A stretch of 64,000 nt of DNA from the NCBI GenBank assembly GCA_964594075.1, contig CAZQKW010000011.1, positions 1,480-65,479 on the forward strand, in the 5' to 3' direction. Positions 11,492 through 12,542 of the stretch are shown here, in pieces (position 1 is the stretch's first letter; each line of letters starts with the position of its first letter). The translations under genes were made by a program, and so were the position numbers. The stretch is from an uncultured Thermodesulfobacteriota bacterium (GTDB taxonomy: Bacteria; Desulfobacterota; WTBG01; CAIYCZ01). Under the pieces are notes generated by a model that saw only the letters and a program-made list of their open reading frames with translations, ran no database searches and had not been told where the DNA came from.

Positions 11492-11567
11492 GGGCCATTA
11501 GCTCAACTGGCAGAGCAACTGACTCTTAATCAGTAGGTTTGGGGTTCGAGCCCCCGATGGCCCACCA
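11492..11567 (+). tRNA. tRNA-Lys (anticodon CTT), 76 nt, CCA encoded
   Basis: Manual fold. Acceptor GGGCCAT/ATGGCCC, D-stem GCTC/GAGC, anticodon stem ACTGA/TCAGT with loop CTCTTAA, T-stem TGGGG/CCCCG with TTCGAGC loop, discriminator A plus CCA. Confidence 0.85.
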
Positions 11568-11717
11568 AACTCAATTCTTTTCTTCCTGCATGTTGAAAAA
11601 ATATTGGAGCTTTGCAAGACCGTCTCCATGTAATTTGCCATACTGTCCCTGCCGCTGTTTTAATCTCTCTATACCTTACTGAGCATTGACAGGTCTTGAT
11701 ATACAACAGGGTGTCAT

Positions 11718-12083
11718 ATGGAACATCAACAGCAAAATAATTTGTCAAGTCTATCCGGACTAACCCTTGACGAAAGAGAGGCTGTTTTTGAGTTCGTCAA
11801 ACGCTTGAGAGCATTGTTTGGGCCGAGCATTCAAGAGATTATTTTGTTTGGTTCAAAAGCACGGGGGCAATCTGGGGGCAATTCCGATATAGATATTTTA
11901 ATTGTACTTGATAAAATATCTATTCAAATAAAGAAGGCTATCTCAGAGCTGGCAGCGGAGCAAAACATAAAACATAATGTTCTTATTTCGACCATACGCT
12001 ATGATACCGCCACATGGGGAAATCCCGCCATTCAGGCATCACCTTTCGGACAGGCAGTAAAACATGAGGGGATATGGTTATAA
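11718..12083 (+). CDS. nucleotidyltransferase-domain antitoxin (MNT type) of an MNT/HEPN toxin-antitoxin pair
   Basis: LFGSKARGQSGGNSDIDILIV (GS..RG...DxD polymerase-beta-like NTase motif). Overlaps the next ORF by 10 nt. Confidence 0.75.
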   Translation: MEHQQQNNLSSLSGLTLDEREAVFEFVKRLRALFGPSIQEIILFGSKARGQSGGNSDIDILIVLDKISIQIKKAISELAAEQNIKHNVLISTIRYDTATWGNPAIQASPFGQAVKHEGIWL

Positions 12084-12490
12084 CGAAAGAACAACAGGCG
12101 CTGGCGCTGCACCGCTTCCGGAGGGCAGAGGAAGCTTTGAGGGAGGCACAGGAAGAGCTTTTACGTAAGAATTTAAGACTGACCGTAAACAGAGCATACT
12201 ATGCAATTTTTTATGCTATGCGGTCACTCCTTGCCCTGGTTGCTAAAGATTCGTCAAAACATTCCGGCGTCATTTCTCTTTTCAATCAGGAGTTTATCAA
12301 AACAGGTATTATTTCAGAGGTGAGCTTTAAATCAATCCAACTTCTTATGGATTTGAGGCATGAAGCAGATTATCAAGACTTTTCTGAAATTAATGAAGAT
12401 GAGGCACAAGAGGCAGTTCGGTCAGCAAAAACAATAATTACCACTTTTGATGAAGCATTAAAAAAACTTCTTGAAAGCGGTCAAATATAA
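12074..12490 (+). CDS. HEPN-domain toxin partner
   Basis: 138 aa, alpha-helical, with R-x4-H (RHEADYQ) HEPN motif. Classic MNT-HEPN gene order with overlap. Confidence 0.7.
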   Translation: MVITKEQQALALHRFRRAEEALREAQEELLRKNLRLTVNRAYYAIFYAMRSLLALVAKDSSKHSGVISLFNQEFIKTGIISEVSFKSIQLLMDLRHEADYQDFSEINEDEAQEAVRSAKTIITTFDEALKKLLESGQI

Positions 12491-12503
12491 AAAATATAAC
12501 CCA

Positions 12504-12542
12504 TCAGTAGGTTTGGGGTTCGAGCCCCCGATGGCCCACCAG
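12504..12542 (+). repeat. 39-nt perfect direct repeat of the 3' end of tRNA-Lys (identical to 11529..11567); putative attR-like scar
   Basis: atcagtaggtttggggttcgagcccccgatggcccacca occurs at 11529-11567 and again at 12504-12542. Confidence 0.85.

Follow-up and report, generated by a model that had tools for sequence, protein, structure and literature searches.

A one-kilobase MNT/HEPN island bounded by tRNA-Lys repeats in an uncultured Thermodesulfobacteriota bacterium: a candidate mini-island mobilised in trans

A 64,000-nucleotide stretch of DNA from an uncultured Thermodesulfobacteriota bacterium (assembly GCA_964594075.1, contig CAZQKW010000011.1, positions 1,480 to 65,479; referred to below, at its full length, as the window) contains a very small island inserted at the 3' end of a tRNA-Lys(CTT) gene, the only tRNA gene that ARAGORN and Rfam call in the window. 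The last 39 nt of this gene, which begin at tRNA position 38, the final base of the anticodon loop, and include the encoded CCA, recur exactly on the far side of a pair of genes encoding a nucleotidyltransferase (MNT) and a HEPN protein, a putative toxin-antitoxin (TA) module (Table 1). The 39-mer (ATCAGTAGGTTTGGGGTTCGAGCCCCCGATGGCCCACCA) is present in exactly two copies in the window, whereas none is expected from 100 shuffles of the same sequence. No further copy occurs there even at three mismatches, and a search with the 29-nt core allowing up to six substitutions still returns just these two. The repeat is exactly 39 nt long: base 12542 (G) differs from base 11568 (A). The original prediction had located the left copy exactly and set the right copy one base too far to the right. 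It had also held that the right copy is not a second functional tRNA, and no tRNA is called there. The 935 bp between the repeats contain, as had been proposed, the MNT/HEPN pair alone, in the form of two open reading frames (ORFs) overlapping by 10 nt. With the 39-nt copy of the tRNA 3' end, the insertion measures 974 bp.

The unoccupied state of the site is found in a relative, L024 (ENA ERZ4756919, 44.5 kb), which serves as the empty-site reference and whose left flank is 94.8% identical to the window at the nucleotide level over 10.8 kb. In L024, the complete tRNA-Lys is joined directly to a homologue of the window sequence lying 3' of the right repeat (attR), with the same bPH_2 gene next. 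At the junction, CCACCA is followed by TAAACTCAAGCGTTACCTGC in L024 and, after the right repeat, by GTAAAATCAAGCGTTACCTGC in the window. The right flank of the window corresponds to L024 10950-11618, directly 3' of the tRNA, with 85.5% nucleotide identity. The trailer also lies directly 3' of the tRNA in L043, L012, L013 and L015 (the terminator hairpin is evident in L043, the only one checked), with no second tRNA fragment in the sequence examined. The occupied structure is reproduced in two independent assemblies and is therefore not an assembly artefact: L008, a strain from another sample that is 98.4% identical to the window, and L002, a ~1-kb Logan unitig. The window differs from the unoccupied site by a clean 974-bp insertion, so that the comparison of empty and filled sites originally suggested as a check bears out the attL/attR signature.

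Copies of the island with the same ends are found in other hosts. Their identity to the window island is 99.1% in L008, 94.8% in L021 (a second ~1-kb Logan unitig) and 90.8% in L010, a metagenome-assembled genome from Lac Pavin that represents a distant host in the comparisons. The copies of L019, L020 and L031-36 are ~91% identical to the window and 97-98% identical to L010. The flanking genes of L010 are 64-78% identical to the window at the nucleotide level, against 91% for the block extending from the tRNA to the attR core, and the high-identity block begins in the tRNA and stops at the end of the attR core. In a codon-level comparison of the window with L010, synonymous divergence (dS) was 0.17 for the HEPN and 0.40 for the MNT gene, versus 1.56 for the DUF1848 gene and 1.90 for ahcY in the flank, where trmB was saturated. 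The ratio of nonsynonymous to synonymous divergence (dN/dS) was ~0.14 for MNT and ~0.15 for HEPN; both island genes are under purifying selection. The distribution among relatives is patchy. This patchiness, the identical ends and an age far below that of the hosts together imply horizontal transfer of the minimal unit as such, to the same site. Among the readings initially put forward, a minimal TA cassette moved in trans is the best supported, the same unit occupying the same site in hosts saturated at synonymous sites.

A closer relative (L005/L022/L023; flanks 78-88% identical in nucleotide sequence, dS ~0.7) has unrelated DNA 3' of the tRNA. The L005 contig ends 417 nt past the tRNA, and its sister contig L023 gives ~1.1 kb: at L023 5529-6604, unrelated non-coding DNA (~430 nt) comes after the tRNA, which has CCA, and then, in place of the bPH_2 gene, a gene for a secreted protein. 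This DNA may represent another occupant or a rearranged flank. A contig encoding a HEPN protein 83% identical to that of the window has the gene order of the island. HEPN homologues at 69-72% amino acid identity have two settings, a type III CRISPR-Cas/RT-Cas1 locus and a TA-rich region; no tRNA fragments or att sites were found at these loci, and the att-bounded form is limited to a close clade. In the first of these settings (L026-L028, 1967-2796), an MNT/HEPN pair whose HEPN is 72% identical lies inside a CRISPR-Cas locus resembling type III, with a Cas_APE2256 (Csx1/Csm6-like) gene on one side and a Cas6-RT-Cas1 fusion together with Cas2 on the other.

The att sites themselves indicate what the element brings with it. 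The right island junction, ...ATATAACCC followed by ATCA, is common to L008, L010, L019, L021 and L031. In L010 and L021, attL ends ...GATGGCCCA followed by CCA and then island DNA, whereas attR ends ...GATGGCCCA followed by TAA (GGCCCA, then TAA). A native-type terminator hairpin comes after attR in L010, and in L021, whose unitig is 18 nt shorter, the same trailer is seen for its first 15 nt. Since attL has CCA where attR has TAA, the element supplies a new tRNA 3' end. The native gene of the window lineage has CCA encoded already (L024), which explains why the repeat extends to 39 nt in the window and to 29-36 nt elsewhere. Variants at the left edge of attR (ATCA-TGG in L010, L019 and L031; ATCAGCAGG in L021) travel with the island lineages and are therefore element-borne.

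Identity in the non-coding left end of the island reaches 85% with L010 and 95% with L021, and the host intergenic DNA has no detectable similarity. Folding revealed no significant RNA structure in this left end (z +1.74), and no consensus sigma-70 promoter or terminator was called between the tRNA and the MNT gene. At the attR junction, RNA folding likewise gave no significant structure and no terminator. The left end is presumed to contain the promoter/operator of the TA genes and possibly recombinase arm sites; transcription from the tRNA promoter may also continue into the TA genes.

Of the two cargo genes, which form one operon by virtue of their overlap, the first encodes a protein matching PF01909 (E 2.5e-9) and also PF18765. 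It contains the GSX10DXD motif of MNT proteins, as defined in PMC11586414, in the form GSKARGQSGGNSDID. Its nearest structure in the PDB is the nucleotidyltransferase chain of the HEPN-NTase complex 9xbd. The second matches PF05168 (E 3.2e-20), and its nearest structures are 2hsb (AF0298, UPF0332) followed by the HEPN chains of 9xbd/9xbc. In an alignment of 110 sequences (109 homologues and the query), the residues of a motif, LMDLRHExDYQDF, reach 90% conservation or more at all positions but x. By homology, the pair would constitute an addiction module in which the nucleotidyltransferase neutralises the HEPN toxin. It may work like the type VII HEPN/MNT systems, which does not make it a demonstrated member of the characterised HepT/MntA family. 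In those systems the HEPN toxin is an RNase that MNT neutralises by AMPylation; in the window protein, Tyr100 is the predicted target.

The tRNA-Lys(CTT) site is a hotspot at which other islands, and accretion arrays of att-bounded modules, are found in relatives; an integration hotspot was indeed one of the possibilities raised at the outset. In L011, the intact tRNA and its terminator are followed by a 66-aa ORF, a second tRNA fragment, ~130 nt forming the right end of another element (element X) and, past this end, a third, degenerate tRNA fragment ahead of a decayed TA island, of which the left end and an MNT pseudogene are present. The first module of this array (L011 6408-6811) is an att-bounded islet of ~400 bp directly after the functional tRNA-Lys, smaller than the TA island; it contains only the 66-aa ORF (MQKEYDFSKGIRGKFYHPD...), for which Pfam gave no match, and ends in another tRNA 3' fragment. 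In L031, an IS200-like Y1 transposase gene stands first; after it come an MNT-HEPN pair that is intact, a cut attR, the 90-aa remnant of an integrase in convergent orientation, a hydrolase gene, the element-X right end, a tRNA fragment of ~46 nt whose start lies in the anticodon loop and, last, a second TA-island variant, represented by its left end. The transposase gene replaces everything to the left of window position 11688, attL included. Y1 transposase genes (PF01797) occur at L031 2864-3529 on the minus strand, directly upstream of MNT, and at L010 14934-15599, 3 kb downstream of the island; the two are ~93% identical at the nucleotide level. The integrase remnant, which adjoins attR in L019, L020 and L031-36, is the C-terminal part of a tyrosine recombinase with the catalytic HxxR...Y region (HDLRHTFAS...LRYSHL).

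The element-X right end consists of ~130 nt of conserved non-coding DNA (…AAGGAACA.CAGG.AA.A.AA.GGG.GGTAAT..ATTT…) located 5' of a 45-49-nt tRNA-Lys fragment in three lineages. In short contigs of another organism (L004, L006 and L007), it is followed by this fragment and the native terminator and adjoins an HD-domain gene. The cargo upstream of the end varies: a hydrolase gene in L031, nothing in L011 and the HD-domain gene in L007. The element-X end probably marks a family of integrase-bearing islands using the same tRNA. Tandem accretion structures of this type have been described for integrative and conjugative elements (ICEs), integrative and mobilizable elements (IMEs) and cis-mobilizable elements (CIMEs) (PMC5704250). 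Two other contigs stop at the site: L009 (end 10929) at the last base of the tRNA-Lys body and L025 (end 1972) inside the gene after 38 nt, which suggests strain-level heterogeneity at the hotspot within single samples.

Table 1. Coordinates of the island, its boundaries and related features; positions are those of the window unless a locus is named.
Feature	Position	Strand	Basis
tRNA-Lys(CTT), intact; 3' part is attL	11492-11567	+	ARAGORN; Rfam RF00005, 67.2 bits
39-nt direct repeat, left copy: attL core, tRNA positions 38-76 with CCA	11529-11567	+	exact repeat
Island left end, 150 nt non-coding upstream of the MNT gene	11568-11717	+	conserved in L010, L021
MNT gene, 121 aa, putative antitoxin	11718-12083	+	PF01909 NTP_transf_2, PF18765
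HEPN gene, 138 aa, putative toxin	12074-12490	+	PF05168
Right end of the island: 12-nt spacer AAAAATATAACCC from the HEPN stop codon to attR	12491-12502	+	read directly
Right copy of the 39-nt repeat (attR), displaced tRNA 3' fragment	12503-12541	+	exact repeat; no tRNA called
Native right flank, outside the island: trailer and bPH_2/zinc-ribbon gene (12590-13198)	12542-13198	-	PF03703, PF13248
Integrase fragments	L019 719-991; L037 6001-6408
Element-X right end	L031 ~3510-3650 (reverse strand); L011 6820-6960; L007 1810-1960

The island is flanked on the left by ahcY, trmB and a DUF1848 gene, and on the right by the bPH_2/zinc-ribbon gene and type IV pilus genes. The nearest genome matches, whose proteins are 56-68% identical, point to an uncultured Thermodesulfobacteriota-like lineage. 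The order DUF1848 gene, tRNA-Lys(CTT) is kept in L009-L013, L015, L022-L024 and L043. Upstream of the tRNA, a single-copy insert of ~190 nt (11280-11489) separates it from a conserved promoter-like box (AAAAAATATTGC...ATGATATATGTTAG). The insert is present in the window and L008 only, L024, L025 and L023 having ~45 nt there. It matches no Rfam family at the gathering threshold and would form the 5' leader of the tRNA transcript. Further to the right lie two very large genes for PilY1 homologues (13726-18579 and 21898-27207; ORFs of 1617 and 1769 aa), each followed by a set of minor-pilin-like genes, which suggests a duplicated type IV pilus tip module.

The reading favoured here, with a probability of roughly 55%, is that the window element is a miniature, non-autonomous, CIME-like island moved by a tyrosine integrase acting in trans. 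The element brings a tRNA segment of its own, from position 38 through CCA, so that insertion regenerates an intact tRNA (attL) and pushes the original 3' fragment and terminator to the far end (attR). Excision and integration would be carried out by the tyrosine integrase of a larger island using the same tRNA-Lys site, such as element X. A decayed integrase, presumably of this kind, adjoins the attR of the TA island in one lineage. The TA module would penalise loss of the element. The predicted junction of the circular form (attP) is ...AAAAATATAACCC + 39-mer + AACTCAATTC..., and that of the restored site (attB) ...GACTCTTA + 39-mer + GTAAAATCAAGCG....

Several results weigh against this scheme. 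The original prediction had seen no integrase between or next to the repeats, and no tyrosine recombinase was detected in the 64-kb window, whether by precomputed Pfam assignments for the called genes at ~2-22 kb (JGI metagenome contig Ga0394875_0000388, which includes the window), by Pfam searches of 25 further large ORFs or by a hidden Markov model (HMM) that was built from fragments of the integrase-remnant family and searched over the ORFs of all six frames. An intact helper element using this att site was not recovered either, and apart from the 90-aa remnant no integrase was seen beside the island. The att core, as the exact 39-mer or a degenerate 29-mer, has no match in IMG/VR viral contigs, nor does the island in blastn searches of PLSDB plasmids and INPHARED phages. 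For integrases directed at tRNA genes, crossover generally takes place in the anticodon loop or the T loop. The identity between island and tRNA starts at the last anticodon-loop base, that of element X within or just 5' of the loop (45-49-nt att); the two may not share a crossover point, and a crossover in the anticodon loop would lack overlap identity. As to the cargo, the MNT protein scores 30.2 bits against the NCBIfam MntA model, below its cut-off of 60, and the HEPN sequence of the window, DLRHEADYQDF, has no His at +5 and so no canonical RX4HXY. The toxin-antitoxin function is therefore homology-based only.

Other searches describe the relatives of the remnant and of the cargo. The HMM of the integrase-remnant family found nothing in the other loci either. 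With the remnant as query, the 120 best matches of a word-index search are all fragments of 63-139 aa, and an exhaustive search also brings up full-length relatives, of 340-430 aa. In these phyla, fossil 3' ends of integrase genes next to tRNA genes appear to be common. One such fragment, P0283 (135 aa, on at least 24 contigs), ends 24 nt from the 3' end of a tRNA-Phe. The HEPN protein has only 35%-identical relatives in viral contigs.

Two further readings were rejected. A transposon or insertion sequence with target-site duplication does not fit, as the island has no transposase and the duplication is 39 nt of tRNA. The only candidate terminal inverted repeats (11485-11498 and 12531-12544) reflect the complementarity of the tRNA acceptor stem. 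L002 and L021 cannot be read as circular forms: their ends fall where the repeat breaks the k=31 assembly graph, and a 39-nt repeat, being longer than k, explains such ~1-kb unitigs without a circle; a circular form would in any case share all k-mers with the integrated form.

The main rival to integrase-mediated movement dispenses with a site-specific recombinase. Donor DNA carrying the tRNA, the island and the tRNA fragment would enter by RecA-dependent homologous recombination, with the 76-nt tRNA and the 36-39-nt repeat as portable homology arms, and the TA module would then stabilise the insertion. It predicts the same ends as the integrase model, and both ends of the unit are nearly identical to sequence in every recipient's tRNA-Lys gene. 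The window/L010 identity block is bounded by the tRNA and the attR core, as homology-bounded exchange predicts, both repeat copies of each genome have, at GAG(C/T)CCCC, the C or T variant of their host, and the failure to find an integrase in 64 kb points the same way. However, arms of 36-76 nt are close to the lower limit for RecA recombination, and the site is used by integrase-bearing elements, as shown by the remnant adjoining attR and by the other att-bounded modules. The element-borne variants at the left edge of attR fit both models and do not favour RecA. On balance, recombination by RecA is considered rather unlikely, while being a serious competitor.

It is less probable still that the island is an inert fossil, that is, a larger tRNA-Lys island decayed to its TA module and, in this copy, vertically inherited and immobile. 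The absence of an integrase nearby, the stability of the copy between two strain-level assemblies (window and L008, 99.1%) and the decayed versions seen elsewhere (the MNT pseudogene of L011 and the cut attR of L019 and L031) agree with such a history. Independent decay, however, cannot yield identical ends in at least four lineages, and an island dS of 0.17-0.40 against 1.6-1.9 for the flank requires transfer of an already minimal unit; moreover, the two repeats are 39/39 identical and both genes are intact. The decayed island retaining only its addiction module, another of the initial readings, may fit the origin of the unit, but not each copy, as all share the same ends. No larger element sharing the ends of the island was found that would document an origin by ICE or IME decay. 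Finally, that the repeat is an ancestral partial duplication of the tRNA, or an assembly artefact, with no insertion at all, is extremely improbable. Nothing beyond the bare presence of the repeat speaks for it; the structure is reproduced in independent JGI, ENA and Logan assemblies, and ancestral duplication, which the original prediction had named as the outcome that would overturn it, is refuted by the joining of the tRNA to the post-repeat flank in L024.

It is quite possible, though less likely than not, that tRNA-Lys mini-islands form a distinct class of selfish elements, the integrative-island counterpart of miniature inverted-repeat transposable elements. Such an element would be a ~1-kb unit consisting solely of an addiction module and a portable tRNA 3' half. 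It would parasitise the integrases of unrelated islands directed at the same tRNA, or use its tRNA-derived ends as homology arms, and would pass from species to species and build up arrays 3' of the tRNA. More speculatively, the element could alter expression of tRNA-Lys, since it provides an encoded CCA and moves the terminator away from the tRNA, and the TA transcript would end in a mimic of a tRNA 3' half, which could matter for a HEPN RNase.

Island-finding tools, like the usual concept of a tRNA island, require an integrase, which the window case lacks. The empty site and the dS contrast show a recombinase-less unit of less than 1 kb occupying and re-occupying a tRNA site across species-level and deeper divergence. 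If this proves general, mini-islands would be an overlooked route for the spread of TA and defence modules and would help to stabilise integration hotspots. A ~1-kb substrate with defined attL, attR and attB would lend itself to testing which integrases work in trans and whether tRNA repeats are enough for capture by RecA. The hosts being uncultured is a practical limit, and heterologous systems would be needed.

A parallel is provided by the TA cassettes of chromosomal (super)integrons, which are ~1-kb promoter-bearing units at recombination sites, depend on a recombinase encoded elsewhere and stabilise cassette arrays. The window island is similarly a ~1-kb TA unit bounded by recombination sites, presumably with its own promoter and moved by a recombinase encoded elsewhere, and its relatives occur in arrays of mobile modules. 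However, its sites are copies of a tRNA 3' end and not attC hairpins, there is no IntI or attI, and the arrays lie downstream of a tRNA; the parallel is thus one built on tRNA att sites. With regard to cargo, type VII HepT/MntA systems have been described in Shewanella (SO_3166/3165), Aphanizomenon and Legionella (PMC7641770, PMC11586414). The window pair shares with them an upstream MNT gene overlapping a downstream HEPN gene, the GSX10DXD motif, small proteins (121 and 138 aa) and an MNT-HEPN complex among the nearest structures. It differs in that its HEPN belongs to the PF05168/UPF0332 branch, with RHExDY (Tyr at +5) in place of RX4HXY, and that its MNT falls below the NCBIfam MntA cut-off; its activity is assigned by homology.

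Islander islands are tyrosine-integrase islands that split and regenerate a tRNA gene (PMC4383910). In common with these, the window island has a regenerated intact tRNA at one end, a displaced 3' fragment as direct repeat at the other, precise endpoints and an unoccupied site in a relative, L024, although it has no integrase gene. Among the CIMEs and tandem accretions at att sites in tRNA genes or 3' gene ends, the examples given by Guedon et al. (2017, PMC5704250, citing Pavlovic 2004 and Bellanger 2011) include ICESt1/3-related elements of Streptococcus thermophilus, and IME/ICE tandems occur at a tRNA-Lys of S. agalactiae (Guedon et al. 2017, PMC5704250). Like CIMEs, the window island keeps attL and attR (39/39 identical) without integration or transfer genes. 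It belongs to a locus where such units stand in tandem with other att-bounded modules, one of them with an integrase remnant, and it would be expected to depend on the cognate integrase of a neighbouring or incoming element. In contrast to the CIMEs described, it is far smaller, at ~1 kb with a TA pair alone, its host belongs to an uncultured Thermodesulfobacteriota-like lineage in which its mobilisation is presumed, and, since hosts with saturated synonymous sites share the minimal unit with identical ends, it spreads as such and is not merely a local product of decay. Whereas tRNA islands, CIMEs, accretion and stabilisation by TA modules are known already, the reduction to ~1 kb, combined with clear evidence of horizontal mobility of the reduced unit, is unusual.

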